Made by a program: the position numbers and the translations under genes. Below the pieces are notes generated by a model. The model worked only from the letters and a program-made list of their open reading frames with translations, ran no database searches and was not told where the DNA came from. A stretch of DNA of 64,000 nucleotides from Pseudomonadota bacterium (GTDB taxonomy: Bacteria; Pseudomonadota; Gammaproteobacteria; Pseudomonadales; JADFDG01): NCBI GenBank assembly GCA_049324495.1, contig JBMOOP010000136.1:2136-66135 (forward strand), given 5' to 3'. Positions 2,827-49,456 of this stretch are shown in pieces. The number at the start of each line of letters is the position of its first letter. Position 1 is the stretch's first letter.

Positions 2827-3568
2827 TGGCGGGGGTCTCCTGTGGTTTGGTAATGGCCCGGCGGTGCCAGGATTTCTCGATCCGATCCGGGCGCGGCGCG
2901 GTCAACACGACGACGAGATCGACACGCAGCGGCCTCGTCCCCGGCGGTAACCTCAGCTCAGCCTTGATATCTTCGACATAACGTACACGGAACTGCTGCC
3001 CCCCGGGAGGCAACACCTGCGCGATCAACAGTTCGTCACTGCCTGACGGACCCTCGACGATCACCCGACCCTCGAAGCGCCCCTCCACCACGCCATCGGT
3101 TTCACCGGTGCGCACCAGCAACGCCTCAAGCAACCACACCGCCGGCGTACCTGCCGAGGAGAGGGCCAACCGCTCGACCCGCAGTCCCTTGCCACTGCGA
3201 TCAGGAATGGCGACTCGCCGGTAATAGGCGATTGCCTGTTCCAGCTCGGCCACTCGATCCTGAAGCTCGCGATTCTCGATCCGCACCCGCTCCTCAACGG
3301 CGTGCGTAACCTCGCCACCACTGCGGTATACCGCCAGCTCATCGCGCAACACCCGGTTTTCGTCGATAACGCGCCCAAGATCGATCGCCACATTGATATC
3401 GGCACCGGTGCCGGCCATGCTCATCAGCGTCGAGTAACGGCCGCCAAACCAAGCACCGACAGCGATCAAGCCAACGCTCAGAAGCAGCAGCGCCAGCAAC
3501 GCACGCCGCCGACCCAATCGATCGGCAATGACCACCATCGGATAAACGCGCGGACCCTTGACCGTCAC
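2810..3568 (-). CDS. hypothetical membrane-anchored coiled-coil protein (bactofilin partner candidate)
   Basis: 252 aa with one N-terminal TM segment (ALLALLLLSVGLIAVGAWFGG) followed by a heptad-like region (ENRVLRDELAVY ... IENRELQDRVAELEQAIAYY). Its 3' end overlaps the bactofilin start by 17 nt. I recognise no catalytic motif. Confidence 0.6.
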   Translation of the reverse strand: MTVKGPRVYPMVVIADRLGRRRALLALLLLSVGLIAVGAWFGGRYSTLMSMAGTGADINVAIDLGRVIDENRVLRDELAVYRSGGEVTHAVEERVRIENRELQDRVAELEQAIAYYRRVAIPDRSGKGLRVERLALSSAGTPAVWLLEALLVRTGETDGVVEGRFEGRVIVEGPSGSDELLIAQVLPPGGQQFRVRYVEDIKAELRLPPGTRPLRVDLVVVLTAPRPDRIEKSWHRRAITKPQETPANAGQG

Positions 3569-3579
3569 GACAGCCGACC

Positions 3580-4614
3580 TCAGGGCAACAGCGCGACCTG
3601 CTCAAGACCGGTGGTCTCGGCAAGGCCAAACAGCAGGTTCATGTTCTGTACCGCCTGGCCGGCCGCGCCCTTGACCAGATTGTCGATCACCGACAGCACC
3701 ACCACAGTGTCGCCATCCTGTGGCCGGTGCACGGCAATCCGGCAAACGTTCGCCCCCCGCACGCTGCGGGTTTCCGGATGCGAGCCGGCAGGCAGCACAT
3801 CCACGAATGGCTCGTTGGCGTAGCGCTGCTCGTAGATTTTCTGCAGATCACCGTGCGGATCCCTGAGGGTGGCGTAAAGCGTGGCATGGATGCCCCGCAC
3901 CATCGGCACGAGGTGCGACACAAACGTCAGCCCCACACTGACTCCGGCCGCCACACCCAGCCCCTGGCGAATCTCCGGCAGGTGACGATGCCCGGCGACT
4001 CCGTAGGCCTTGAAGGACTCGGACGCTTCGCTGTAGAGGATATCGACCCGTGCATGGCGCCCGGCACCGGAGACACCCGATTTGGCGTCGGCAATCAGAC
4101 GCTGCGGATCGACAAGGCCCTGCTCAATGAGCGGCAGGAAGCCCAATTGCACAGCAGTCGGGTAACAACCGGGGTTGGCAATCAGCCGCGCCTTGCGGAT
4201 CTGCTCGCGATTGACCTCCGGCAAGCCATAAACGGCTTCGGCGAGGAGCGCCGGGCACTTGTGCGGCATGCCGTACCAGCGCTCCCAGACAGCCGCATCC
4301 TTGAGACGGAAGTCGGCGGCAAGATCAATGACCTTGACCCCGGCAGCAATCAGGGCGGGGGCCGACTCCATCGCAATCCCGTTGGGGGTGGCGAAGAACA
4401 CCACGTTGCACTGGCGCAGCACATTGATATCCGGCGCGCTGAACGCGAGATCAAGATGACCACGCAGATTAGGGTAGGCATCGGTTACTCGCTGACCGGC
4501 ATCGGAACGGGACGTAATCACATCAAGACGCACCACCGGGTGCTGACTCAGAAGCCGCAGCAACTCGACGCCGGTGTACCCGGTACCACCTACCACACCC
4601 ACGCTGATCGTCAC
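3580..4614 (-). CDS. argC: N-acetyl-gamma-glutamyl-phosphate reductase
   Basis: It carries [18 protein letters not shown] (NAD-binding) and the catalytic NPGCYPT motif. I chose the GTG start at 4614, which gives 344 aa. The track ORF extends to 4725 with a non-homologous, Arg-rich extension. Confidence 0.9.
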
Positions 4615-4781
4615 GGCAAAACTCCCGAATCCACTCAAACTCACGCAAGGGCCGATCAATCTACCGGCGCGCCGGGACAACGGCAACCGCCGATTGCCGC
4701 CGCACGCAACCGGACGAACCCGCATGGCATCGTTGCTTCTGCGATAATCGGCGTCCCTCAGCGCACCGGAGAGTACAAACC

Positions 4782-5222
4782 GTGTACCTATGGCTCAAGG
4801 CCCTGCACATCATCGCCGTTGTGACCTGGTTCGCAGCACTGCTTTATTTGCCGCGCCTGTTCGTTTATCACGCACTGACCGACGCGACAGATACCGTCGG
4901 CCGCGAGCGCTTCAAGATTATGGAACGCAAGCTATACCGCGGCATCATGACACCCTCGGCAATCGCTGTGCTGGTGCTTGGTGTCTGGCTGCTGGCGCTG
5001 AACTGGGATTTCTACAAAACCCAGGGCTGGATGCACGCCAAGCTCACGCTCGTGTTCCTGCTCTATGGTTATCACGGTATGTGCGGCCGCCTCGTGCGCG
5101 AGTTCGCCAATGATCGCAATACGCATTCGCACGTCTTCTATCGCGTCTTCAACGAAGTGCCGGCGCTGCTGCTGGTTGCTGTGGTAGTGCTGGTCGTGGT
5201 GCGGCCATTCGCCGGCGGCTGA
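4782..5222 (+). CDS. hemJ: protoporphyrinogen IX oxidase HemJ (UPF0093/CopD-like membrane protein)
   Basis: 146 aa with about 4 TM segments and the N-terminal signature [23 protein letters not shown]. Confidence 0.85.
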
Positions 5223-5223
5223 G

Positions 5224-6060
5224 ATGAATTTCGCCAAATTGCCCCCGAAACCGGTCGTTGTGGTCTTTGCCGGCCACGACCCCACCGGTGGTGCCGGCAT
5301 CCAGGCTGACAGCGAGGCAATCGCCTCGCTCGGTTGTCACGCGGCCACTGTTGTGACCGCATTGACCGTGCAGGACACGCGCAATGTGGTGTCGTTTGAG
5401 TCGATCCGGCCCGCGCTGCTTGCCGCGCAAGCGAAGACGTTGCTCGACGATATCACCCCGACGGCATTCAAGATCGGCATGATCGGCAGTACGGAAAATG
5501 CACGCACCATTGCTGCAATACTGAAAAAACATCGCGGCGTCCCGGTGGTGCTCGACCCGGTGCTCACCGCAGGCGGCGGTAGTGTACTGGCCGACACCGC
5601 CTTGCGGCGCGCATTGCTGGACGAGCTTTTCCCGCTTGCCACCCTCGTAACGCCGAACGGCCTCGAGGCGCGGGCGCTGGCACCAATGGCAGATACGCTC
5701 GCCGCCTGCGCGCAGGAACTGCTTGCGGCCGGTTGCCGGCATGTGCTCATCACCGGCGGTCATGAAGCCGGCCCGGAAGTGGTGAGCCGACTCTATGGCG
5801 GACACACTGCGCTGGCGCGCCACGCCTGGCCACGACTGCCCGGCGAATTCCATGGCTCCGGCTGCACGCTTGCCAGCGCCATTGCCGCCTTGCTGGCGCA
5901 GGGCGCGGACATCGCCAGCGCGGTTGACGAAGCGCTCGCCTACACCTGGCACGCATTGGGCAATGCCCAGACCCCAGGACACGGGCAGGCGATCCCCGAC
6001 CGTTTTTTCTGGGTCCGATCTTTCGACGCCAAGGAAGGTCGCTGGCAGCGCAGCAACTGA
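5224..6060 (+). CDS. thiD: hydroxymethylpyrimidine / phosphomethylpyrimidine kinase
   Basis: 278 aa with the GHDPTGGAGIQAD motif and the ribokinase-like C-terminal GSGCTLASAIA. It starts 1 nt after the hemJ stop. Confidence 0.9.
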   Translation: MNFAKLPPKPVVVVFAGHDPTGGAGIQADSEAIASLGCHAATVVTALTVQDTRNVVSFESIRPALLAAQAKTLLDDITPTAFKIGMIGSTENARTIAAILKKHRGVPVVLDPVLTAGGGSVLADTALRRALLDELFPLATLVTPNGLEARALAPMADTLAACAQELLAAGCRHVLITGGHEAGPEVVSRLYGGHTALARHAWPRLPGEFHGSGCTLASAIAALLAQGADIASAVDEALAYTWHALGNAQTPGHGQAIPDRFFWVRSFDAKEGRWQRSN

Positions 6061-6061
6061 G

Positions 6062-6703
6062 ATGCAAACCTTCATGCAACTCATTGGCCTCTATGCCATT
6101 ACCGATCCTGATCTGTTGCCCGGCACGCAACTGGTCGAGGCCGCCGCTGCCGCAATCGACGGGGGCGCCACCATCGTCCAATACCGCAACAAGCGGGCCG
6201 ATAGCGCAACCCGGCGGCGCGAGGCGGAAATTCTCAACACCCTGTGCCGCGAGGCGGGCGCGCTGTTGATCATCAATGACGATATCGATCTGGCGTTGAG
6301 TTGCGGCGCGCATGGCGTGCACCTGGGCCAACAAGACGGCACCATCGCCGAGGCACGCGCCCGACTCGGCGAGGACGCCGTGATCGGCCAGAGCTGTCAC
6401 GCCTCGCTCGAACGTGCGATCACGGCACAGGCAGCCGGCGCGAACTACGTTGCCTTTGGGCGTTTTTTTACTTCGCACACCAAACCGCAGGCAGCGCCGG
6501 CGGAGATCGCACTGCTGGCCGAGGCACGCGCGGTCATCGACATCCCGATCGTCGCCATCGGCGGCGTGACGGTTGCCAATGCGCCCGCGCTGATTCATGC
6601 GGGCGCTGATGCTGTTGCCGTCATTCACGGCCTGTTCGGCGCTACCGATGTCACTGCGCGGGCGCGCGAATTCACCGCTCTGTTCAATCGAGGACCTATT
6701 TGA
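6062..6703 (+). CDS. thiE: thiamine-phosphate synthase
   Basis: The ATG at 6062 gives 213 aa beginning [15 protein letters not shown]. It has the TMP-TENI motifs VHLGQQD and VAIGGV. The track ORF from 5795 is an upstream extension that overlaps thiD. Confidence 0.9.
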
Positions 6704-7983
6704 TGAGCCGCTCCGAAGAACTGTTCGCTCGTGCCCGGCAATCAATTCCCGGCGGAGTGAATTCGCCGGTGCGGGCCTTTCGGCAAGTAGGCGGCGCGCC
6801 GATATTTTTTGTGCGCGGCGCAGGCGCATACGTCACCGACGCAGATGGAAAACGCTACATAGATTATGTGCAGAGCTGGGGGCCTCTGGTGCTCGGGCAC
6901 GCGCATCCGGCAGTGCTTGATGCAGTCAAGCGCACTGCCGAGAGCGGCCTTTCGTTCGGTGCGCCGACCGAGCTGGAAGTTCGCATGGCCGAGCGCGTCA
7001 AAGTAATCGTGCCGTCGATGGATCTGCTGCGCATGGTCAACTCCGGCACCGAAGCAACGATGAGTGCAATCCGGCTGGCGCGGGGTTTTACCGGCCGCGA
7101 CCGTATCGTCAAGTTCGAAGGCTGCTACCACGGTCATGCCGACTCGCTGCTGGTAAAAGCCGGTTCCGGTGCGCTGACCCTTGGCGTGCCGAGTTCCGCC
7201 GGCGTGCCCGCCGATCTCGCGCAGCACACCATCACCCTCGATTACAACGATGCGCAGCAGGTGCGCGAATATTTTGCACGCGAAGGCAGCAAGGTTGCGG
7301 CGCTCATCGTCGAGCCGGTTGCCGGCAACATGAACTGCATTCCGCCGGCAGCGGGCTTTCTCGAAACGCTGCGCGAGGTATGCGATAACCACGGTACGGT
7401 GCTGATCTTCGATGAAGTCATGACAGGTTTTCGCGTCGCCCTCGGCGGCGCGCAGGCACACTACAACATCAGGCCGGATCTGACCTGCCTGGGCAAGGTG
7501 ATCGGCGCCGGATTACCGGTTGGCGCATTCGGCGGCCGGCGCGACATCATGGAAAAAATTGCGCCGCTCGGCCCTGTTTACCAGGCCGGCACGCTCTCCG
7601 GAAATCCGCTGGCAATGGCCGCCGGGCTGGCGATGCTCGACGCGATCGAACAACCGGGCTTTTATGCCGGACTGACGCGGCACACCACAGCGTTCATGGA
7701 CGGCCTCCGTGCCGAGGCGGAAAAAGCCGGGGTGCCGCTGACCACCAACCAGGCCGGCTCAATGTTCGGATTCTTTTTCACGACCGAACAGCAGATTGCG
7801 CGTTTCGCGCAAGTGACGCAGTGCGACATCGAACGATTCAAACGTTTCTTCCACCTGATGCTCGCTGAAGGTGTCTATCTGGCACCGAGCGCCTATGAAG
7901 CAGGGTTCATGTCCGGCGCGCACACCGACGCCGATATCGCCGCCAGCGTGCAGGCGGCCGGGCACTGCTTCGCGCGACTTTGA
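6703..7983 (+). CDS. hemL: glutamate-1-semialdehyde 2,1-aminomutase
   Basis: Class III PLP aminotransferase with [22 protein letters not shown] and the Lys in CLGKVIGAG. Its ATG overlaps the thiE stop (TGATG). Confidence 0.92.
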
Positions 7984-11824: not shown

Positions 11825-12093
11825 GCATCATGCCCGGGTTGCTGGCCGGCCCGGATCATGCGTGACGCTGGCCCTGCACCATATGGGTCTTCATAAGTCT
11901 TCGGGCTCACCGGCATCACGGCCCCGAGGTGTATGATGGCGCCCCCTGCTGCAGCCGTGCCCGGCGGCAGCCATTGCGGGGCATGACAAACCACAGAGGA
12001 CGGATTATTTTGTTGCGTCGATTTTCAGGGGTACGTCGCGCATTGAGCGTTTTGCTCGGCGCCGACAACAGTGAATCAGAGGGGGGGTCCGAC

Positions 12094-13038
12094 ATGGCCA
12101 AGGCTGCCAAGCATAAGGGCAAGGGCGACAAAAAGAAGGATGGCAAGCCGGCCAAGGCGCCCGTCAAAAAGGCGAAGGCTGCAAAGCCTGTGACAAAGCC
12201 GCTCAAGCCGGCCAAAGCGCCAGCCAAAGGGGCAAAAGCCATTAAGGCTCCGACAAAGGCCAAAGCTGCGGCAAAAGCGCCCGCCAGGGCTCGGCCGGCA
12301 AAATCTGTCAAACCGGCAAGCAAGGCAAAACCCACCGCCAAGCCGTTAAAAAGCGCAGTGCCGGCAAAGCCGGTTGCCGCCAGGACCGCGCCCAAAACTC
12401 CGACGAAAGCCCCCGTGACGGCACCCGCCAAAGTGCCACCGGCAACGGCTGCCAAGCCGGCTCCGGCCCGGATGGCTGCCGCCACCAAAGCCAGTGCACC
12501 CGCCAAGGTCGAGCCGCAGCCAGCCGAAGTCCGCAAACTCGCGCCGAAAAAAGCACCCGTTGTGAAGCTGCAACCCGTCAAACCGATCAATCCGCTCGAA
12601 CCACCGGCCAATCCGAACGCCCTGATTCATGGCCAAAAGCCATACATCGCCCAGACCGGTGAGCAATACATGAGCGATGGTCAACTCGCTCATTTCCGGC
12701 GCATCCTCCTCGCCTGGAAACAGGAACTGATGGAGGAAGTAGACCGGACTGTGCACCATATGCAGGACGAGTCCGCTAACCTGCCTGACCCGAACGATCG
12801 CGCTACCCAGGAAGAAGAATTCGCGCTCGAACTGCGTACCCGCGACCGTGAGCGCAAGTTGATCAAAAAGATCGACAAGACCCTCACCATTATTGAGGAC
12901 GGCGATTACGGCTATTGTCAGGCCTGCGGGATCGAGATCGGCATCCGCCGCCTGGAAGCGCGTCCCACGGCTGAACTTTGTATTGACTGCAAAACGCTTG
13001 CCGAGATCAAAGAAAAGCAGGTCGGCTCCGGCAGCTGA
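12094..13038 (+). CDS. dksA: RNA polymerase-binding transcription factor DksA with a long Lys/Ala/Pro-rich N-terminal extension
   Basis: The C-terminal ~140 aa carry the DksA hallmarks: YMSDGQLAHFRRILL, the coiled-coil tip DPNDRATQEEE, and the zinc finger CQACG-N17-CIDC. The ATG at 12094 is preceded by GAGGGGGG. The N-terminal ~160 aa are KPAKAP/AKAA repeats. Confidence 0.85.
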   Translation: MAKAAKHKGKGDKKKDGKPAKAPVKKAKAAKPVTKPLKPAKAPAKGAKAIKAPTKAKAAAKAPARARPAKSVKPASKAKPTAKPLKSAVPAKPVAARTAPKTPTKAPVTAPAKVPPATAAKPAPARMAAATKASAPAKVEPQPAEVRKLAPKKAPVVKLQPVKPINPLEPPANPNALIHGQKPYIAQTGEQYMSDGQLAHFRRILLAWKQELMEEVDRTVHHMQDESANLPDPNDRATQEEEFALELRTRDRERKLIKKIDKTLTIIEDGDYGYCQACGIEIGIRRLEARPTAELCIDCKTLAEIKEKQVGSGS

Positions 13039-13135: not shown

Positions 13136-14062
13136 ATGTACTGCGGCCGCTTCGCTCCCTCGCCTACCGGGCCACTCCACATCGGTTCACTGACTTGCGC
13201 GTTGGCAAGTTTTCTTGATGCACGTGCCGCCGGTGGCCGCTGGTTGGTGCGCATCGAGGATCTCGATCCACCCCGCGAAAAACCCGGCGCCAGCGCCGGC
13301 ATTCTGCGCACACTGGAAGACCATGGCCTGGCCTGGGACGGCGAAGTCGTGTACCAGAGCCAGCGGCACGCGTTGTACGAAGCCGCTCTTGAGCGACTGG
13401 TGCAGGACGGGCACGCATTCCGCTGCACATTATCGCGCACCCAGCTCGATGCCCACGGCAGCAACCATCCCGGCCGCGCGCTCAGCGCGGCACTCTTCGA
13501 GCAAACACTGCTCGACAAAACGCCGCTCGCCGCCGAAGCGGCACCGCCCGATGAACCGCCCGGCTTTACTTGGCGGCTCGACGTGCCGACGGCCGATATC
13601 CACTTCGTCGATCGCATCCAGGGCGCGCAGCACTGCAACCTTGCGCGTGACGGCGGCCCCTTCGTGATCCGGCGTCGCGACGGGCTGTTCGCCTATCAAC
13701 TGGCCGTTGTCGTTGACGATGCTGCGCAGGGCATCACCGAGGTCGTGCGCGGTTCGGATCTGCTCGATTCGACCCCCCGGCAGTTGTTGCTTCAGGAGCG
13801 GTTGGGCGTGGCAACTCCTCGCTATGCCCATATTCCGGTACTCGCTGATGCACAAGGCCAAAAGCTCAGCAAGCAGGCTAGGGCTGCCCCGGTGATCGCG
13901 GCGCGACGGCTGACCAACATGAATCTCGCCCTGCGCGCACTCGGACAACCCGCTCAACCGGATGCCGACACACCTGCCGAACTGCTGGCTGCCGCCATCA
14001 CCCAGTGGTCAAGTGCCCATATCCCCCATCGCATGGCCATCGCTCTGACCTCGCTCGCCTGA
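13136..14062 (+). CDS. gluQ: tRNA glutamyl-Q(34) synthetase (glutamyl-queuosine tRNA-Asp synthetase)
   Basis: 308 aa truncated GluRS paralog with RFAPSPTGPLHIGS (HIGH-like) and KLSKQ (KMSKS-like). It sits in the classical dksA-gluQ neighbourhood. Confidence 0.9.
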   Translation: MYCGRFAPSPTGPLHIGSLTCALASFLDARAAGGRWLVRIEDLDPPREKPGASAGILRTLEDHGLAWDGEVVYQSQRHALYEAALERLVQDGHAFRCTLSRTQLDAHGSNHPGRALSAALFEQTLLDKTPLAAEAAPPDEPPGFTWRLDVPTADIHFVDRIQGAQHCNLARDGGPFVIRRRDGLFAYQLAVVVDDAAQGITEVVRGSDLLDSTPRQLLLQERLGVATPRYAHIPVLADAQGQKLSKQARAAPVIAARRLTNMNLALRALGQPAQPDADTPAELLAAAITQWSSAHIPHRMAIALTSLA

Positions 14063-14157: not shown

Positions 14158-14334
14158 ATGTACACCGACCGCCTGCTGCTGCTGTTCATTCTCGGCGGCT
14201 ACCTGCTGTCCCCGGCGCTCATCGAGTGGTGGAGCGACGGCGGCACCGCCTGGTACCGGCCCTATCTGATCTGGCTGGCCCTGATCATCTTCAGTTACTG
14301 GATCGGCAAGAGCCGCGACCTCGATGACGTTTGA
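14158..14334 (+). CDS. small two-TM membrane peptide overlapping the sensor kinase start (cbrX-like)
   Basis: 58 codons with two hydrophobic helices (LLLLFILGGYLLSPALIEWW and YLIWLALIIFSYWIG). Its stop TGA (14332-14334) lies inside the first codons of the downstream kinase gene (ATGACGTTTGA). Confidence 0.5.
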   Translation: MYTDRLLLLFILGGYLLSPALIEWWSDGGTAWYRPYLIWLALIIFSYWIGKSRDLDDV

Positions 14335-17314
14335 CCTGACCCTGCTGTTCGTCATCGGCATCAGCTACCTGCTGGTGCTGTTCGCCATCGCGTGGGCCGC
14401 CGACAGCGGCCGGCTGCCGGCAAAAATCATCCGCCATCCTGCGGTGTATGTGCTGTCGTTGGGTGTTTACGCCAGCGCCTGGGCGGTATATGGCGCGGTC
14501 GGTTTCGCGTTCAATCATGGCTACAACTTCCTGTCGTTTTACGTCGGCATCTCCGGCGTATTCCTGCTCGCACCCATCCTGCTCGCACCAATTCTGCGGC
14601 TGTCGCAAACCTACCAACTGTCTTCGCTCGCCGATCTGTTCGCCTTTCGTTATCGCAGCTCGATGGCCGGCGGGCTGGTCACCCTGTTCATGCTGCTCGG
14701 GGTGCTGCCCCTGCTCGCCCTGCAGATCCAGGCGGTGGCCGACTCGATCCACATCCTCACCAACGAAGCCAGCCGCAACAGCCTTGCATTCTGGTTCTGC
14801 ATGACCATCACCGCGTTCGCGATCCTGTTCGGTGCGCGGCACACCACCCCGCGTGAAAAACACGAAGGCCTGGTTGTTGCGATCGCGGCGGAGTCGCTGA
14901 TCAAGCTTGTGGCGCTGATCGCCATCGCCCTGTTCAGTATTTTCGTGGTATTTGACGGCCCGACCGACCTGCACGAATGGCTGCGCGACCGTCCGGAAAC
15001 CCTGACGATGCTGTATGCCCCGCTTGCCGACGGCACCTGGCACAGCCTGATTCTGGCGTTCTTCGTGTCTGCCGTGGTGATGCCACACATGTACCACATG
15101 GCATTCACTGAAAACCTGAACCCGCGGGCACTGCTCACCGCAAGCTGGGGCTTGCCGCTGCTGCTACTTGCGATGAGCCTCGCCGTGCCCTTTGTGCTCT
15201 GGGCTGCCATGAAAACAATGCCGGGGACCGACCCCGAATATTTTTCGCTCGGCGTGCCGCTGGCGATGGGTTCGCCAACGATGGCCCTGGTGGTGTACAT
15301 CGGTGGCCTGTCGGCAGCGAGCGGCGTCATCATTGTCTCCACGCTCGCGCTCGCCGGCATGTGCCTGAATCACCTCGCAATGCCGCTGTACAAGCCCGGA
15401 CAAAATGGTGACCTGTACCGCTGGCTGCTGCGGGCCAAACGCATCCTGATCGCGACGATCATCCTCGGGGCATACCTGTTCTATTACTTTCTCGACAACC
15501 ACAATACGCTGACCGAACTGGGCATGCTGGCGTTCGTCGCCACATTGCAGTTCGTTCCCGGACTGATCGGCGTCCTGTTCTGGCCCGCTGCCAACCGTGC
15601 CGGCTTCATCGCCGGGCTCATCGCCGGGTTTGTGGTCTGGTTTTTCGCGCTGCTGCTGCCCACCATCACTCCGTTCGCCGGCATTGCGCTGCCGTTTTTC
15701 GGTATCGATTTCGAACCGAACGCGACCAACTGGCACACTGCCGCCTTCACCGCAACCATCCTCAACGGCCTGCTTGGCAGTGTGGTCTCGATGATCACCT
15801 CTCGCAGTGACGCCGAGAAGCGTGCCGCCGAAACCTGCGCCGTCGATAATCTGCGTCGACCCTATCGATGGAAACTCGGCGCCGGGAGCGTCGAAGATTT
15901 CGTCAAGGCGCTGGCCTTGCCGCTCGGTGCCGCCACTGCACAGCGCGAGATCGACTTTGCGCTGCGTGATCTGAAGCTCGTTGATAGCGAAACGCGGCCG
16001 TACATGCTGCGGCGCCTGCGCGACCAGGTAGAGACGAATCTTTCGGGCCTGCTCGGCCCGTCGGTTGCGCACGATATCGTCGATGATGTGTTGCCTTACA
16101 AACCGCTGGCGGAAGGTCAGGGCGCCGAAGACATCCATTTTATCGAGAGCCGGCTTGAGGACTACCAGTACCGGCTCTCCGGTCTCGCCGCAGAACTCGA
16201 CAACCTGCGACGTTTCCATCGTCAGACGCTGCACGATCTGCCACTCGGCGTGTGCTCGCTGGGCACCGACCGCGAGATTCTCGGCTGGAATGCGGTCATG
16301 GAATCGCTTACCGGCATTCGCGCCAGCGAGATAATCGGCTCATGGCTACACAATCTGCCGGAACCCTGGCGCCAACTGCTGATGGATTTCGCCGGCAGCA
16401 GCACCCAGCATGTCCATCAGAAGGCGATTACCATTGATGCCCATACCCGCTGGATCAGTCTGCACAAGGCAGCAATCAATCTGCCGGCTGGTCAACAACA
16501 ACTGGGCGCTCAGGTGATCGTGATCGAAGATCTCACCGACATGAAAACACTCGAGGCGCGCCTCACGCACAATGAGCGCCTTGCTTCGATCGGCCGCCTG
16601 GCCGCCGGTGTTGCCCACGAGATAGGCAACCCGGTGACGGGCATCGCCTGTCTGGCACAGGATCTGGCTACGGAAAGCGAGAATGTCCTCGTGCGCGATT
16701 ACACGCAGCAGATTCTTGAGCAGACGCGCCGCATCGATCGCATCGTCCAGTCGTTGGTCAGCTTCAGTCATAGCGGCAAGCAGCGCGCCACCGCCACCGA
16801 TCCCGTAGAACTGCACCAAATCATCGATGAAGCCATCGCGCTCATTCGCCTGGGTCGCGACGGCCGCGAATTCAATTTCATCAATGAAAGCGATGCAACG
16901 CTGCGTGTTGTCGGCGATGCCCAGCGACTGCTGCAGGTATTCATCAATCTGCTGAACAATGCCCGCGATGCATCCGCCCCCGGCGACACGGTACGGGTAT
17001 TTACCGTACCCTCCGGCGATAACACAGTAACCGTCTGTATCGAGGACAACGGCAGCGGGATTCCTGTCGAGCTTCTGGGCAGGGTGTTTGAGCCTTTTGT
17101 CACCACCAAGGATCCCGGCAAGGGCACGGGCCTTGGCCTCGCGCTCGTTTACAGCATCATCGAAGACCACCAGGGGCACATCGCCATCGAGAGTCCCATC
17201 CACCCTGACACGCAACGCGGTACGCGCATCCTCCTGACGCTGGCGCGCTGGCACGAAGATTCCGCCGAGGCCGCCACCCACGCTGCCCACAAGTCCGGGG
17301 AAGAAAACGCATGA
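14324..17314 (+). CDS. cbrA: CbrA-type hybrid transporter/sensor histidine kinase (SLC5 sodium:solute symporter domain + PAS + HisKA/HATPase)
   Basis: 996 aa. The first ~490 aa are multi-TM and SSS-like. A PAS-like segment follows ([18 protein letters not shown]). The H-box is [12 protein letters not shown], the N-box is LLNNARDA, and the G-boxes are DNGSGIP and GKGTGLGLA. Confidence 0.85.
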
Positions 17315-18657
17315 GCCACATCCTGATCGTCGAGGACGAAGCGGTTATCCGCGCGTCGCTGCGCAAGTTGCTGGAGCGCAACGGCTACAGTGTCGCCGAA
17401 GCCGGCTCGGTGCAGGAAGTAAAGGAGAAGTACGAGATTACCGACTTCGACATGGTGCTCAGCGACCTGCGCCTGCCTGGCGAACCGGGCACCACGATGA
17501 TCAAACTGGCTGCCCCGGTGCCGGTATTGATCATGACCAGCTACGCCAGCCTCAAGTCTGCTGTTGAAGCCATGAAGCTGGGTGCCATCGACTACATCGC
17601 CAAACCCTTTGATCACGAGGAAATGTTGCTCGCAGTAAAACGCATCCTGAAAGAAAGCGCCCTGGAACGACAGGCAGCGGCACTCAAGCAGGATTTGCAA
17701 CGCAACTACCCGACCACCGGCATTATCGGCAGTTGTGCGCCCATGCAGGAATTGTTCAAGCGCATCGGCCGCGTTGCACCCACCAACACCACCGTATTGA
17801 TTCTCGGCGAGTCCGGCACCGGCAAGGAGCTCGTTGCCCGCGCCCTGCACGAGCAGGGCACTCGCCGCTCCGGGCCGCTTATCTCCGTCAACTGCGCGGC
17901 AATTCCCGAGACACTGATTGAAAGCGAGTTGTTCGGCCACGAGAAGGGTGCATTCACCGGCGCCAACACCATGCGCAAGGGTCTGGTCGAAGCCGCCGAC
18001 GGCGGCACGCTGTTCCTCGATGAGATCGGCGAATTGCCGCTTGAGGTACAGGCGCGTCTGTTGCGGCTGCTGCAGGAGAGGGAAATCCGGCGCGTCGGCT
18101 CAACCGAATCGCGCAAGGTCGATGTCCGCCTCTGCGCAGCAACCCATCGCGACCTGAAAGCTCTCGTCGGCGCCGGCAAGTTCCGGGAAGACCTTTTCTA
18201 CCGTCTGGACGTGTTCGAGCTGAAACTGCCGCCACTGCGCGAGCGCGGCGACGACGTGATTGAGCTGGCGCAGAAACTCATCGAACGTGCCTGTCGGAAA
18301 ATCAATCGCAAGACACTGGCCTATTCCGAGGAATCACTGCGCGCCATTCGCAGCTATGCCTGGCCTGGCAACGTGCGTGAATTGGAGAACGCCATCGAGC
18401 GGGCCGCGATTCTTTGCGACGACGACGAGATACTGCCGGAACACCTGGGCATTGAGGCCGCCCCCCAGGACCAGGGCGACACGATGGCGCCTGGCGATCC
18501 GTCGGTTGACCTGTCATTGGAGGACTATTTCGCCCGTTTCGTCATCGAACACCAGGACAGCATGAGCGAAACCGAATTGGCCCTGAAACTCGGTATCAGT
18601 CGCAAGAGCCTGTGGGAGCGCCGGCAGCGGCTGGGTATCCCCCGCAAGAAGGGCTGA
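17311..18657 (+). CDS. cbrB: sigma-54-dependent NtrC-family response regulator (CbrB-type)
   Basis: Receiver domain (ILIVEDE ... VLSDLRLPG). AAA+ domain with GESGTGKE, the GAFTGA motif and LFLDEIGE. C-terminal Fis-type HTH ([21 protein letters not shown]). Its start overlaps the cbrA stop (ATGA). Confidence 0.85.
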
Positions 18658-18676
18658 CCCACTCCAGGGTCTTGCG

Positions 18677-18771
18677 TGTTACCAAACGAAACAAATATAG
18701 AGTCGCTCATCGGCAATTAAGTAACAATACGTAGGCACTTTTCCTGGCCAAAATGCGGGAGTGTTCGTAAC
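18677..18771 (+). promoter_or_regulatory. candidate enhancer (UAS) half-sites for the CbrB-type activator
   Basis: TGTTAC (18677-18682), GTAACA (18721-18726) and TGTTCGTAAC (18762-18771) lie about 40-135 nt upstream of the -24/-12 promoter. An A+T-rich stretch between them (TAACTGTTTTAATTACTATTAATTG) could bend DNA or bind IHF. Confidence 0.35.
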
Positions 18772-18808
18772 TAACTGTTTTAATTACTATTAATTGTGGT
18801 CGCCGTGT

Positions 18809-18824
18809 TGGCACGCATCCTGCT
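18809..18824 (+). promoter_or_regulatory. sigma-54 (-24/-12) promoter
   Basis: TGGCACgcatcCTGCT. The GG (18810-11) and GC (18822-23) have canonical spacing. It lies directly downstream of a sigma-54 activator gene. Confidence 0.6.
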
Positions 18825-18834
18825 ACATTTCTGT

Positions 18835-19113
18835 TGCAATAAGAACAACAACAGATCCGGCTTCTGCACCCATAAAAACAACAATGCAGAAGAAAAAGAA
18901 CGACAACAGAAGCCAATGCAGTGCATGAACCGACGGAGTAAATCCCTCGGTTCTTTTCTTGGACAAGACGACCGGTATCCAAAAACAACAGCCGGCGCCT
19001 GCAAGACCGAAGGAACCCCATCGCCATTTGGTGATGTAACGGCTTCCTTTATAAAAAGAACAACAAAGATGTACAGAACGGCGGGCCGGGAAACCGGCCC
19101 GCCGTTCTGCTTT
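18835..19113 (+). ncRNA. crcZ: CrcZ-like A-rich (CA-motif) Hfq/Crc-sequestering sRNA candidate
   Basis: It holds five AANAANAA-type motifs: 18841-53, 18874-84, 18890-912, 18981-90 and 19053-68. Three of them sit in hairpin loops. It ends in a 13-bp GC stem with a GAAA loop (19077-19106). Its position between cbrB and pcnB matches Pseudomonas crcZ. The ORFs called here are mutually overlapping and low-complexity. Confidence 0.6.
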
Positions 19114-19226
19114 CAGGTTGCTTAAAAGGCCGGCCAGACCAAAAGCCGGCACCGGAAAAACTGCCGGAACCCCTCCCCCCTGCTAGACTTGCCGCCGTTT
19201 CGTCCCTGACCTGACCATCGAGCCAC

Positions 19227-20633
19227 ATGTCAAAACGCCTGGTCGGCTTCATCAGCCGCGTTCTGAATGGCAGCAAGGAACCCAAAGCCGAGCTGCGCGT
19301 CATCCCCCGTGAAGCACACCATGTCTCACGCAAGAACATCAGCCCAAATGCGCTGAAAGTGCTTTATCGCCTGAAGGATGCCGGCTACGAGGCCTACCTC
19401 GTCGGTGGTGGCGTGCGCGACCTGCTGCTCGACGGCCACCCCAAGGACTTCGACGTTGCCACCAGCGCGACGCCCGAACAGGTCAAACGGGTCTTCGGCA
19501 ACTGCCGGCTGATCGGCCGCCGCTTCCGACTGGCCCACATCCTCTTTGGCCGCGAGGTTGTCGAAGTCGCGACCTTCCGCGCCAATCATCTGCCGGACGA
19601 CCCGGGTGATGATGAGCACATCCCGGACGACGAAGACGCCAACGGCTCGGTACACGGCTCCACCGGCATGATTCTGCGCGACAATGTCTGGGGCAGTGTC
19701 GAGCAGGATGCCCTGCGCCGCGATTTCACCGTCAATGCGCTCTATTACAACATCGAGAACTTCGCGATCCACGACTACGTCGGCGGCATGAAAGATCTCG
19801 AGAAGAAACGCCTGCGGCTGATCGGCGACCCGGAAACGCGTTACCGGGAAGATCCGGTGCGCATGCTGCGCGCCATCCGTTTTGCCGCCAAGCTGGGCTT
19901 TACCGTCGAGGCCGGCACGGCAAAACCGATTGCCCAATTGAAGCCCCTGCTGCAACAGGTACCGCCAGCGCGCCTGTTCGACGAAATGCTCAAACTGTTG
20001 CTGGCCGGTTATGGCCACGCCAGTTGGGAATGGCTCGAACGCTTTGGCCTCGACGAAGTGCTGTTCCCCGATACCGCGCACCTTATCCGACGCGACGCCA
20101 ACGCGCGGAAATTCCTGTTGGTCGCGCTCGACAATTCCGATCGGCGTATCGCCGAGGGCAAAACCGTTACGCCCGCATTCCTGTTCGCCGCCCTGCTATG
20201 GCCAGAAGTCAGTCGTCGCTATCAACAACTGCTGAGCGAAGGCGTTAACGATCTCGCCGCCATGGCCCAGGCCGGCCAGCAGGTGCTCGACGAGCAGTAT
20301 CGCATCGTCGCCATTCCGCGCCGCTTCTCGGTACCGGCACGCGAGATCTGGGAGATGCAGTTGCGCTTGCCCCGGCGCAGCGGCAAACGTGCCGAGGTTC
20401 TGCTCGGCAACTCACGGTTCCGCGCCGCCTATGATTTTCTGCTGCTGCGCGAAGCTGCCGGGCCACTGGCCGGCGAGCCACCAGACATATTTACCGAGCA
20501 ACTCGGCAGTTGGTGGAACGATTACCAGCGTGTCGATTTCGATCAGCGTCAAATCATGTTGCGCGATCTGGAAGCCAGACGGCAGCCTGGCGACACCGCT
20601 GGCCGCAAGCGCCGCCGCCGGCGCAAGAGCTGA
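19227..20633 (+). CDS. pcnB: poly(A) polymerase I
   Basis: 468 aa with the nucleotidyltransferase motif YLVGGGVRDLLLDGHPKDFDVAT and a basic C-terminal tail (GRKRRRRRKS). Confidence 0.9.
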   Translation: MSKRLVGFISRVLNGSKEPKAELRVIPREAHHVSRKNISPNALKVLYRLKDAGYEAYLVGGGVRDLLLDGHPKDFDVATSATPEQVKRVFGNCRLIGRRFRLAHILFGREVVEVATFRANHLPDDPGDDEHIPDDEDANGSVHGSTGMILRDNVWGSVEQDALRRDFTVNALYYNIENFAIHDYVGGMKDLEKKRLRLIGDPETRYREDPVRMLRAIRFAAKLGFTVEAGTAKPIAQLKPLLQQVPPARLFDEMLKLLLAGYGHASWEWLERFGLDEVLFPDTAHLIRRDANARKFLLVALDNSDRRIAEGKTVTPAFLFAALLWPEVSRRYQQLLSEGVNDLAAMAQAGQQVLDEQYRIVAIPRRFSVPAREIWEMQLRLPRRSGKRAEVLLGNSRFRAAYDFLLLREAAGPLAGEPPDIFTEQLGSWWNDYQRVDFDQRQIMLRDLEARRQPGDTAGRKRRRRRKS

Positions 20634-28641: not shown

Positions 28642-28911
28642 TCAACGGCGCAAGCCGAGCGTCTGGATGAGTTTCTGGTAACTGGCTTCATCGGTGCGCG
28701 CCAGATAATCAAGCAGCTTGCGGCGCTGGTTGACCATGCGGATCAGACCACGACGTGAGTGGTGATCCTTGACGTGATCCTTGAAGTGACCCTGGAGTTG
28801 GTCGATCTGCGCTGACAGCAGCGCAATCTGTACTTCCGGTGACCCCGTGTCGCCGTCCTTGCGTTGAAACTGCTGGACGACCTTTGCTTTTGCTTCTGCA
28901 GTAAGAGACAT
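28642..28911 (-). CDS. rpsO: 30S ribosomal protein S15
   Basis: 89 aa from [12 protein letters not shown] with the conserved [15 protein letters not shown]. Confidence 0.93.
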
Positions 28912-28981
28912 GTTATTGCTCCGTTGATGCACATGTTTTAAACCGTACTGCCGCGCATCACTGCAGCAGCCGGCACTTTTG

Positions 28982-35432: not shown

Positions 35433-35509
<77 letters not shown>

Positions 35510-35587: not shown

Positions 35588-35672
35588 TGGTGCCCAGGGT
35601 CGGACTTGAACCGACACGGCTTGCGCCACTACCCCCTCAAAGTAGCGTGTCTACCAATTTCACCACCTGGGC
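35588..35672 (-). tRNA. leuU: tRNA-Leu (anticodon GAG)
   Basis: The minus strand reads GCCCAGGTGGTGAAATTGGTAGACACGCTACTTTGAGGGGGTAGTG ... GGTTCAAGTCCGACCCTGGGCACCA. It has a long variable arm and is closely similar to E. coli leuU, which likewise follows secG. Confidence 0.93.

Positions 35673-47495: not shown

Positions 47496-49456
<1,961 letters not shown>

Follow-up and report, generated by a model that had tools for sequence, protein, structure and literature searches.

A compact CrcZ-like RNA with a predicted sigma-54 promoter between cbrB and pcnB in a lineage outside Pseudomonadaceae

Introduction

In all Pseudomonas genomes, the gene for the small RNA (sRNA) CrcZ lies downstream of cbrB (PMC5113210), and two reviews describe CbrAB and the cbrA-cbrB-crcZ synteny as exclusive to Pseudomonadaceae (PMC6296734, PMC8871633). 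Here we describe the spacer between cbrB and pcnB in a 64-kb stretch of DNA from a Pseudomonadota bacterium (contig JBMOOP010000136.1; the whole stretch is called the window), in which a first-pass annotation had placed a CrcZ-like sponge RNA driven by a sigma-54 promoter of its own. That proposal is supported by the orthology of the flanking genes, the promoter and the conservation of the motifs, and we consider it likely that the RNA is a positional orthologue of CrcZ with an equivalent function in an uncultured gammaproteobacterial lineage, namely a decoy for Hfq (and Crc) driven by CbrB and RpoN.

Published P. aeruginosa CrcZ contains six clusters of at least four consecutive A-R-N triplets, (A-R-N)n>=4, a criterion that was set for this RNA (PMC4063720). 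In P. putida, the subsites F1 (TGTTAC), R1 (GTAACA) and R2 (GTAACg) together make up the CbrB sites of crcZ, crcY and PP2810; a site for integration host factor (IHF) lies between enhancer and promoter, and IHF is needed at crcZ and crcY (PMC6296734). The small gene cbrX is also known from P. putida (PMC6591292, PMC8871633). Outside Pseudomonadaceae, the only RNA likened to CrcZ in the searchable literature is sRNA99 of Acinetobacter baumannii, which carries AAN motifs, is compared by its authors to CrcZ in its action on Hfq, and is described with no link to cbrB (PMC12802169).

The window RNA resembles CrcZ of P. aeruginosa, P. putida and Azotobacter vinelandii in its position between cbrB and pcnB, a near-identical RpoN promoter equally far from the first motif, the F1/R1/R2 enhancer plan with an IHF-like box, several (A-R-N)n>=4 tracts that are left unpaired and a terminal stem-loop. 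Unlike CrcZ, which is about 400 nt long with six motifs, it measures 125 or about 281 nt with three or five motifs, has an internal covarying terminator that divides a core from an optional module, carries a clade-specific 13-mer, shows no significant similarity in the RNA body, has its enhancer about 10 bp further out, and belongs to a host outside Pseudomonadaceae. With the sponge paralogues CrcY and CrcX of P. putida and P. syringae it would share the CbrB/RpoN-dependent A-rich decoy type. Those paralogues are located elsewhere in the genome, whereas the unit in the window is linked to cbrB; pattern and clade-model searches of the 64 kb found no second (CrcY-like) copy. The CrcY/CrcX family tolerates fast divergence and changes in copy number, for which the two tandem units at one related locus (L088, below) may be compared. 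As with CsrB, RsmY and RsmZ, a two-component system is predicted to drive a noncoding RNA that sequesters a global translational repressor through repeated single-stranded motifs in loops and linkers; however, those RNAs use GGA motifs for CsrA/RsmA with sigma-70 and GacA/UvrY, while the window RNA would use (ARN)n tracts for the Hfq distal face with sigma-54 and a CbrB enhancer. It shares with sRNA99 its AAN-type motifs outside Pseudomonadaceae, but sRNA99 has no reported cbrB link or sigma-54 promoter, whereas the window holds a whole conserved cbrXAB-RNA-pcnB module.

A predicted sigma-54 promoter and A-rich tracts in the cbrB-pcnB spacer

The window was compared with ten contigs of its own clade (L081-L087, L146, L149 and L159), selected by a CbrB 79-98% identical to that of the window or by a DNA-pattern match; a further contig, L144, is near-identical to L081, and the clade alignments count 11 distinct members. 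More distant loci came from two metagenome-assembled genomes (MAGs; L088 and L089), Ketobacter alkanivorans (L090; Ketobacteraceae), Amnimonas aquatica (L091; Moraxellaceae) and Gilvimarinus agarilyticus (L003; Cellvibrionaceae), and Pseudomonas (L001) and Phytopseudomonas (L004) provided Pseudomonas-type comparison loci. The order gluQ-cbrX-cbrA-cbrB ... pcnB is kept at all of these collected loci.

The spacer occupies 18658-19226 and is 569 nt long, not 568 nt as first annotated. It contains the lowest-GC 300-nt segments of the 64 kb (0.43-0.46 vs 0.607 overall; the second-lowest value, 0.467, lies near 49251), in agreement with its earlier description as the most A+T-rich stretch, and the 15 sequence strings quoted by the first-pass annotation were all found in place (15/15). 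Its promoter is as follows.

18809-18824, plus strand: sigma-54 (-24/-12) promoter TGGCACgcatcCTGCT, TGGCAC-N5-CTGCT

The strict pattern TGGCAY-N5-YTGCW has a single match in the 64 kb, counting both strands, at 18809, and TTGGCACGC.T.CTGC is invariant across the window's clade while the sequence on either side drifts; uniqueness and clade-wide invariance thus bear out the canonical -24/-12 element that had been proposed here. Exactly one TGGCAC-N5-(C/A/G)TGC(T/A) box is present per collected spacer (two in L088), followed in all of them by a run of A-rich motifs about 30 nt on and then by a terminator. A single base separates the window promoter, TGGCACGCATCCTGCTA, from that of Pseudomonas crcZ, TGGCACGCACCCTGCTA (TGGCACGCACCCTGCT), and the first AANAANAA begins 29 nt after TGGC in both. 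Since the 5' end of the Rfam CrcZ match in L001 sits 27 nt after TGGC, the predicted +1 was put at 18836 (within about 3 nt) by analogy.

Downstream of this point, 18838-19059 contains 11 of the 31 plus-strand matches to AANAANAA in the 64 kb. Of 19 plus-strand (A-R-N)n>=4 clusters in the window, five fall in the RNA (18838-55, 18874-85, 18888-901, 18981-92 and 19053-67), a number reached by 0 of 2000 composition-preserving shuffles of the RNA (mean 0.31); the five A-rich CA motifs first reported are thus confirmed. The clusters number six in the Pseudomonas control, five in all relatives with the long form of the RNA and two to three in those with the short form (both described below). By predicted folding, the mean unpaired probability is 0.85 inside the motifs vs 0.36 in the rest of the RNA, which corresponds to the AAnAAnAA/(A-R-N)n>=4 tracts in single-stranded regions that help define CrcZ. 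The fold of the 281-nt RNA has z = -7.4 against dinucleotide shuffles. Given the verified strings, the unique promoter box, the excess of clusters over shuffles and this fold score, the observation is real and far beyond chance.

A conserved core that ends at a predicted internal terminator

The 5' part of the predicted RNA forms a conserved core with the following features.

18836-18960, plus strand: core RNA, 125 nt, with motifs 1-3, stem P1, an invariant 13-mer and terminator T1
18838-18855, plus strand: A-rich motif 1, (ARN)6, probability of being unpaired 0.89
18859-18914, plus strand: stem P1, GGCUUCUG/CAGAAGCC (18859-66/18907-14), enclosing motif 2 (18874-85) and motif 3 (18888-901)
18912-18924, plus strand: invariant 13-mer GCCAAUGCAGUGC, the same in all 11 distinct members, with variable flanks
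18927-18960, plus strand: predicted internal intrinsic terminator T1, a hairpin (18927-53) with one C.C mismatch, then UUUUCUU (18954-60)

A core of about 120-125 nt is conserved in the transcript alignment of the 11 distinct members at 80% mean column identity, and the motif 1 columns AA.AA.AA.AA are invariant. Stem P1 is part of the RNAalifold consensus, with 98.9% of cells paired and changes of the G-U type only, and it leaves motifs 2 and 3 largely unpaired (probabilities 0.95 and 0.75). A competing hairpin, CUUCUGCA/UGCAGAAG (UCUGCA/UGCAGA), is paired in 84.9% of cells and broken in L086, and both it and P1 are populated thermodynamically. This competitor is the second hairpin of the first-pass annotation; P1 is the better kept of the two. 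The first hairpin of that annotation (18831-36/18849-54) was rejected, because nearly all of it precedes the predicted +1 and relatives do not conserve it. The 13-mer was found neither in Pseudomonas CrcZ nor in the units of L088-L091.

T1 has, by sequence, the makeup of an intrinsic terminator, with a stable GC-rich hairpin directly before a U-run. Four of its pairs show compensatory changes, 0 of 500 shuffles reached its covariation score, and slid controls collapse; in the window it folds at -14.8 kcal/mol (z -3.7). A simple terminator scanner overlooked T1 because of the internal C.C mismatch, and the first-pass annotation had also passed over this covarying hairpin and its UUUUCUU in the middle of the unit. 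T1 closes the RNA in four relatives (L084, L085, L087 and L159), where pcnB comes next without further motifs. T1 ranges from -14.8 to -17.1 kcal/mol in the long forms vs -22.4 to -24.7 kcal/mol in three of the four short forms. The fourth, L159, has an intermediate T1 (-17.3 kcal/mol) that also contains the C.C mismatch; the difference in strength is therefore a trend and not a rule, and the mismatch was rejected as a general mark of long (read-through) forms.

An optional 3' module

Past T1, the window carries an additional module.

18961-19116, plus strand: optional 3' module with the motif 4 hairpin, a variable hairpin, motif 5 and terminator T2
18972-76/18991-95, plus strand: motif 4 hairpin CCGGU/GCCGG, with motif 4 (18981-92) in its 14-nt loop
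19053-19067, plus strand: motif 5, predicted to be single-stranded
19074-89/19094-109, plus strand: predicted terminator T2, a 16-bp stem with a GAAA (GNRA) loop and CUUUC tail

Only six members have this module (the window, L081/L144, L082, L083, L086 and L146). The motif 4 hairpin has a constant loop length, always presents motif 4 and shows a compensatory stem change in L083; it is the CCGG/CCGG hairpin in whose loop the first-pass annotation had placed this motif. T2 folds at -38.2 kcal/mol (z -7.6), and its stem, annotated at first as 13 bp, measures 16 bp. The RNA length of about 280 nt given at that time holds for the form with the 3' module (about 281 nt), but the T1-bounded core of 125 nt is the whole RNA in four relatives. 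Because the RNA ends at T1 in those four, because six members carry the 3' module, and because T1 is weaker in the long forms, we infer two isoforms in the window organism, of 125 nt and about 281 nt.

A covariance model was built from the clade core and scores 102-137 bits in clade members by construction. It also matches the window's own 3' module at motif 5 and T2 (19050-19112, plus strand; 23.6 bits, E 0.012) and the 3' module of L146 (27 bits, E 0.002). An internal duplication of the core may be the origin of the module; alternatively, the match may reflect only a generic likeness of A-rich tract plus hairpin.

Between the RNA and pcnB lies one further conserved element.

19181-19189, plus strand: TGCTAGACT, candidate extended -10 promoter of pcnB (TGnTAGACT box)

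Nearly all clade members, of long and short form alike, have this box some 38 nt before the pcnB ATG. It is probably an extended -10 element, which would start pcnB transcription downstream of the sRNA terminators.

The upstream enhancer region

Upstream of the promoter, four elements were compared with the plan known from P. putida.

18677-18682, plus strand: predicted CbrB subsite F1, TGTTAC, at -158 from the predicted +1
18698-18703, plus strand: decayed CbrB subsite R1, TAGAGT (GGTAAC in relatives)
18721-18726, plus strand: predicted CbrB subsite R2, GTAACA, at -115
18768-18780, minus strand: IHF-like box AAACAGTTAGTTA, 12 of 13 positions of the consensus WATCARNNNNTTR, at -68

GTTAC/GTAAC pentamers recur in the clade near -160, -139 and -117, at fixed positions spaced by two helical turns, in line with the plan of three subsites plus IHF that was established by experiment (PMC6296734). 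The Pseudomonas-type loci have an equivalent plan at about -150, -130 and -108 with an IHF-like box at -59/-60, relative to which the clade's enhancer is shifted about 10 bp further from the promoter. All clade members have F1 between -158 and -163 (-150 in Pseudomonas), and its GTTACC is invariant in all 8 aligned spacers. The GTAAC of R2 is invariant in the spacer alignment and sits at -115 to -120 across the clade and at -106 to -109 in Pseudomonas. R1, as GTAAC/GTTAC at about -139 to -142, is present in L082, L083, L084, L086, L087, L146 and L149 and absent in the window, L081, L085 and L159. The TGTTAC and GTAACA half-sites noticed at first (18677 and 18721) therefore both occupy positions conserved across the clade. 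Their 38-nt spacing, which had been thought too wide, is the usual F1-R2 distance, since both stand at family-standard positions with a decayed R1 between them. By contrast, TGTTCGTAAC at 18762, then listed with the half-sites, overlaps the edge of the IHF-like box, to which we reassign it, and was rejected as a CbrB half-site.

Of 18 loci, 14 have their best match to WATCARNNNNTTR on the minus strand at -68 to -70, with 12-13 of 13 positions matching in 13 of these and 11/13 in L081; the box is thus a putative IHF site on the grounds of consensus match and positional conservation. At the level of sequence, the elements that define CrcZ are present: the GG-N10-GC RpoN box, CbrB subsites (F1 and R2, with R1 decayed) and an IHF-like box. 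An alignment of the spacers of relatives, which the first-pass annotation had suggested as a check, showed conserved promoter, half-sites and A-rich motifs among the 11 distinct members, with drifting flanks.

Flanking genes and host

The gene order in the window, gluQ-cbrX-cbrA-cbrB-[RNA]-pcnB-folK-panB-panC, is the same as in Pseudomonas.

13136-14062: gluQ, upstream of cbrX
14158-14334, plus strand: cbrX orthologue, a small open reading frame (ORF) of 58 aa with two transmembrane (TM) segments, overlapping the cbrA start by 11 nt
14324-17314, plus strand: cbrA orthologue, 996 aa, a sensor kinase with a transporter-like N-terminus and PAS, HisKA and HATPase_c domains
17311-18657, plus strand: cbrB orthologue, 448 aa, an NtrC-type sigma-54 activator with Response_reg, Sigma54_activat and AAA_lid_14 domains
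19227-20633, plus strand: pcnB, poly(A) polymerase I (TIGR01942, 509 bits)

CbrB is 63-64% identical to the CbrB of Pseudomonas and Phytopseudomonas loci that share the same synteny. CbrA is 56% identical over 982 aa, at full length, to that of Pseudomonas (P. fildesensis), and CbrX is 48% identical across all 58 aa to the same-position ORF of Pseudomonas fildesensis (E = 6e-20). CbrX identity is 57-84% in L088-L091; a 58-aa gene is called at the relatives' loci, and it is kept in all related loci. Residues 1-492 of CbrA contain about 12 hydrophobic segments. No SSF domain was called in CbrA by Pfam at E<=1e-3, and the putative SLC5-like assignment of its N-terminus derives from the full-length alignment to Pseudomonas CbrA. 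The features by which CbrAB systems are recognized are all found, namely a multi-TM CbrA N-terminus followed by PAS-HisKA-HATPase, the cbrX overlap and an NtrC-type CbrB. On the strength of the 63% CbrB, 56% full-length CbrA and 48% CbrX identities, we therefore regard these genes as true cbrX-cbrA-cbrB orthologues.

Relatives of the window's PNPase at 85-100% identity are found only among MAGs, and the closest named genera are Alcanivorax (74%) and Pseudomonas (72-73%). By these values the host lineage is equally far from Alcanivorax and Pseudomonas and is not a pseudomonad in the usual sense.

Distribution among other lineages

Between cbrB and pcnB, a sigma-54 box with an A-rich RNA was found in Gilvimarinus (L003 5703-6110; eight (ARN)n>=4 clusters), Ketobacter (L090 5245-5680; six clusters) and Amnimonas (L091 4998-5215; one cluster). 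A CbrB scan of genome contigs was swamped by the generic sigma-54-activator pattern FGHEKGAF, and 6 of 80 loci were true CbrB loci. A metagenome scan with GGCTTCT-N(30-55)-GCCAATGCAGTGC gave 67 matches, of which 3 were real and 64 due to chance. These matches form an internal control, as all three A-rich ones (3/3) carry the sigma-54 box and the 64 chance matches have neither A-rich content nor box.

At L088, whose CbrB is 72% identical to that of the window, two sigma-54 plus A-rich units lie between cbrB and pcnB (4961-5235 and 5850-6112, plus strand), each scoring 29-37 bits with the clade covariance model. A minus-strand EVE-domain gene (5232-5699) sits between them, and the two units form a tandem CrcZ/CrcY-like pair. 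L005, from a Pseudomonadaceae MAG with a CbrB 60% identical, is the exception to the otherwise universal cbrB-RNA-pcnB arrangement: no A-rich RNA, convincing sigma-54 box or pcnB was found there in 3143-7143, the 4 kb past cbrB.

As predicted in the window's lineage, Ketobacter, Amnimonas and Gilvimarinus, the complete module contradicts the exclusivity to Pseudomonadaceae stated in the reviews. Because those reviews confine CbrAB to that family, and because the literature otherwise offers only the unlinked sRNA99, what is new here is a compact, modular CrcZ-type regulator in a lineage and in named genera without earlier description; the mechanism is not new.

Relation to CrcZ

No match to Rfam CrcZ, CrcX or CrcY at the gathering threshold was detected in the 64-kb window. 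The search with these models that the first-pass annotation had recommended thus stays below threshold: on the spacer alone, the end-to-end alignment with Rfam CrcZ (RF01675) scores 23.6 bits (E = 2.8e-4), with a gathering score of 95. The positive controls L001 and L004 score 349.6 and 234.4 bits, and the gathering score was not reached at the 14 other loci (13 non-Pseudomonas loci and L005); among the distant lineages, Rfam CrcZ gave a partial 22.8-bit match in Ketobacter only. The clade model scores 28-37 bits (E 7e-6 to 9e-4) on the units of L088, L089 and Ketobacter.

Several points weigh against a CrcZ-type decoy. The Rfam score lies far under the gathering score, and the reciprocal search with the clade model gave 16-17 bits on Pseudomonas CrcZ (E ~0.4-0.8), like chance loci, such that a putative homology of the RNA body to CrcZ draws on position and promoter and not on RNA sequence. 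The RNA is far shorter than the 407-nt CrcZ, and neither the 125-nt core nor the form of about 281 nt has the size (about 370-410 nt) and conserved secondary structure by which CrcZ is defined. The invariant 13-mer is not explained by a pure Hfq-sponge model, the window lacks the middle CbrB subsite, and the U-tract of T2 is poor (CUUUCAGG). Lastly, hfq and crc were not found in the 64-kb window by a search with probe sequences, a negative that carries little information for a stretch of this size. Nevertheless, the RNA lies directly downstream of cbrB in the cbrA-cbrB-crcZ-pcnB synteny, and by position, promoter, enhancer plan and motif content we read it as a CrcZ that stands outside the curated sequence and structure family; its body evolves too fast for homology to be demonstrated directly. 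With 23.6 bits against 95, "CrcZ-like" is the right name and "CrcZ family member by model" would be wrong.

Proposed mechanism

Transcription, its dependence on RpoN, CbrB and IHF, the two isoforms, the binding of Hfq/Crc and the physiological output would fit together as follows. When preferred carbon sources are exhausted, the CbrX/CbrA/CbrB system would become active, and CbrB would bind upstream at F1 (18677) and R2 (18721). An IHF-type bend at about -68 would bring it to the RpoN-RNA polymerase at 18809-24, and transcription would start near 18836. A transcript that stops at T1 would be 125 nt long with three (ARN)n motifs, and one that reads through T1 to T2 near 19113 would be about 281 nt long with five. 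The single-stranded (A-R-N)n>=4 tracts would bind the distal face of the Hfq hexamer, along with Crc if the lineage has Crc, and the U-rich 3' end could bind the proximal face. Hfq would thereby be titrated off the A-rich ribosome-binding sites of catabolic mRNAs, and catabolite repression would be relieved. A 125-nt core with three tracts is credible as a decoy because the first 151 nt of P. aeruginosa CrcZ, with three motifs, are enough for distal-face binding of Hfq (PMC4063720). In P. putida, read-through from cbrB followed by processing yields a CrcZ-sized RNA (PMC5113210); by analogy, read-through from cbrB may also add to the RNA pool here, since no terminator was seen between the cbrB stop (18657) and 18809 by a simple terminator scan.

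Alternative explanations

A protein-coding reading of the spacer was rejected. Its stop-free segments vary in strand, frame and length among relatives, and the RNA alignment of clade members includes 2-nt indels; for these reasons the region is non-coding. The NCBI protein accessions (GluQ ...304, CbrB MFZ5699307, PcnB MFZ5699309, PanC ...312) leave MFZ5699308 between CbrB and PcnB, which is most simply a hypothetical ORF called over the RNA; a gene caller likewise put a 54-aa ORF in the L089 spacer. It had been foreseen that ORF-based annotation would miss this RNA, and indeed Rfam at its gathering threshold misses it as well and a protein accession apparently sits on top of it. That accession, the absence of a visible terminator ahead of 18809 and the P. 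putida precedent of cbrB read-through with processing would be expected if there were no independent gene here, but instead a 3' untranslated region of cbrB or a small protein-coding gene. With coding excluded, the first of these would still leave the invariant -24/-12 box and the fixed enhancer and IHF elements unexplained without a promoter, and read-through would supplement promoter-driven transcription without substituting for it. We consider this explanation extremely improbable.

It is also improbable, in our view, that the sigma-54 promoter mainly drives pcnB and that the A-rich region is a regulatory 5' leader, placing pcnB under CbrB control through attenuation or Hfq binding. The unit does lie on the pcnB strand and only about 110 nt upstream, and the modest T1 of the long form (-14.8 kcal/mol) and the weak U-tract of T2 make some read-through plausible. 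However, one or two terminator hairpins always intervene, T1 is strong with a good U-run in three of the four short forms, nearly all members conserve the extended -10-like TGnTAGACT box between the RNA and pcnB, and the equivalent layout in Pseudomonas gives a separate CrcZ RNA (PMC5113210, PMC4063720). Another alternative holds that the RNA is mainly a base-pairing, Hfq-dependent sRNA, with the 13-mer as seed for mRNA targets and the A-rich tracts serving only to load Hfq. This would account for a 13-mer that is invariant in all 11 members amid variable flanks, and the core does have the classic 3' end of an sRNA, a hairpin with a U-run of the type bound by the Hfq proximal face. Yet three to five (ARN)n>=4 tracts are a decoy signature, far above what sRNA loading needs (PMC4063720), and the 13-mer is predicted to be partly paired, in the 3' arm of P1 and in a 3-bp mini-hairpin. 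As the main role of the RNA, base pairing therefore seems unlikely to us; it is compatible with decoy action and is possibly an additional function of a CbrB-driven Hfq decoy.

A broader scenario, which we put forward tentatively and with some doubt, joins an ancestral module, fast turnover of the RNA body, a two-isoform device and a second function of the 13-mer. The module may be ancestral to a wide range of Gammaproteobacteria (Ketobacteraceae, Moraxellaceae with Amnimonas, Cellvibrionaceae and several uncultured families), and no invention of Pseudomonadaceae. Only the promoter and the ARN tracts may have been kept, such that each lineage has its own "CrcZ" family, invisible to Rfam. T1 may be leaky, with the ratio of the 125-nt to the ~281-nt RNA setting the number of Hfq-binding sites per transcript, and the 13-mer may add a sequence-specific function, e.g., base pairing or recognition by Crc or an RNase. 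Apart from this scenario, the module extends a known system. If the RNAs act as predicted, environmental and hydrocarbon-degrading Gammaproteobacteria would use "reverse" catabolite repression by Hfq titration far more widely than has been assumed. Rfam-based annotation would systematically overlook such regulators, and pipelines might call spurious ORFs on them. The 125-nt core would then be a natural minimal CrcZ, usable to define what a functional Hfq decoy needs.

Other features of the window

The ORF before gluQ (11929-13038, plus strand) has a DksA domain that is confined to residues 233-365 of 369. At the same position in relatives, the gene calls are 322-329 aa in L081 and L082, and ordinary DksA genes of 156-163 aa are found in L083 and L084; the extended DksA is either a real N-terminal extension in a subclade or a start-codon artefact. 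Rfam searches also identified a ribosomal S15 leader upstream of rpsO-pnp (28855-28974, minus strand; 46 bits vs a gathering score of 39.5) and two tRNA genes (35436-35509 and 35591-35672, both on the minus strand).

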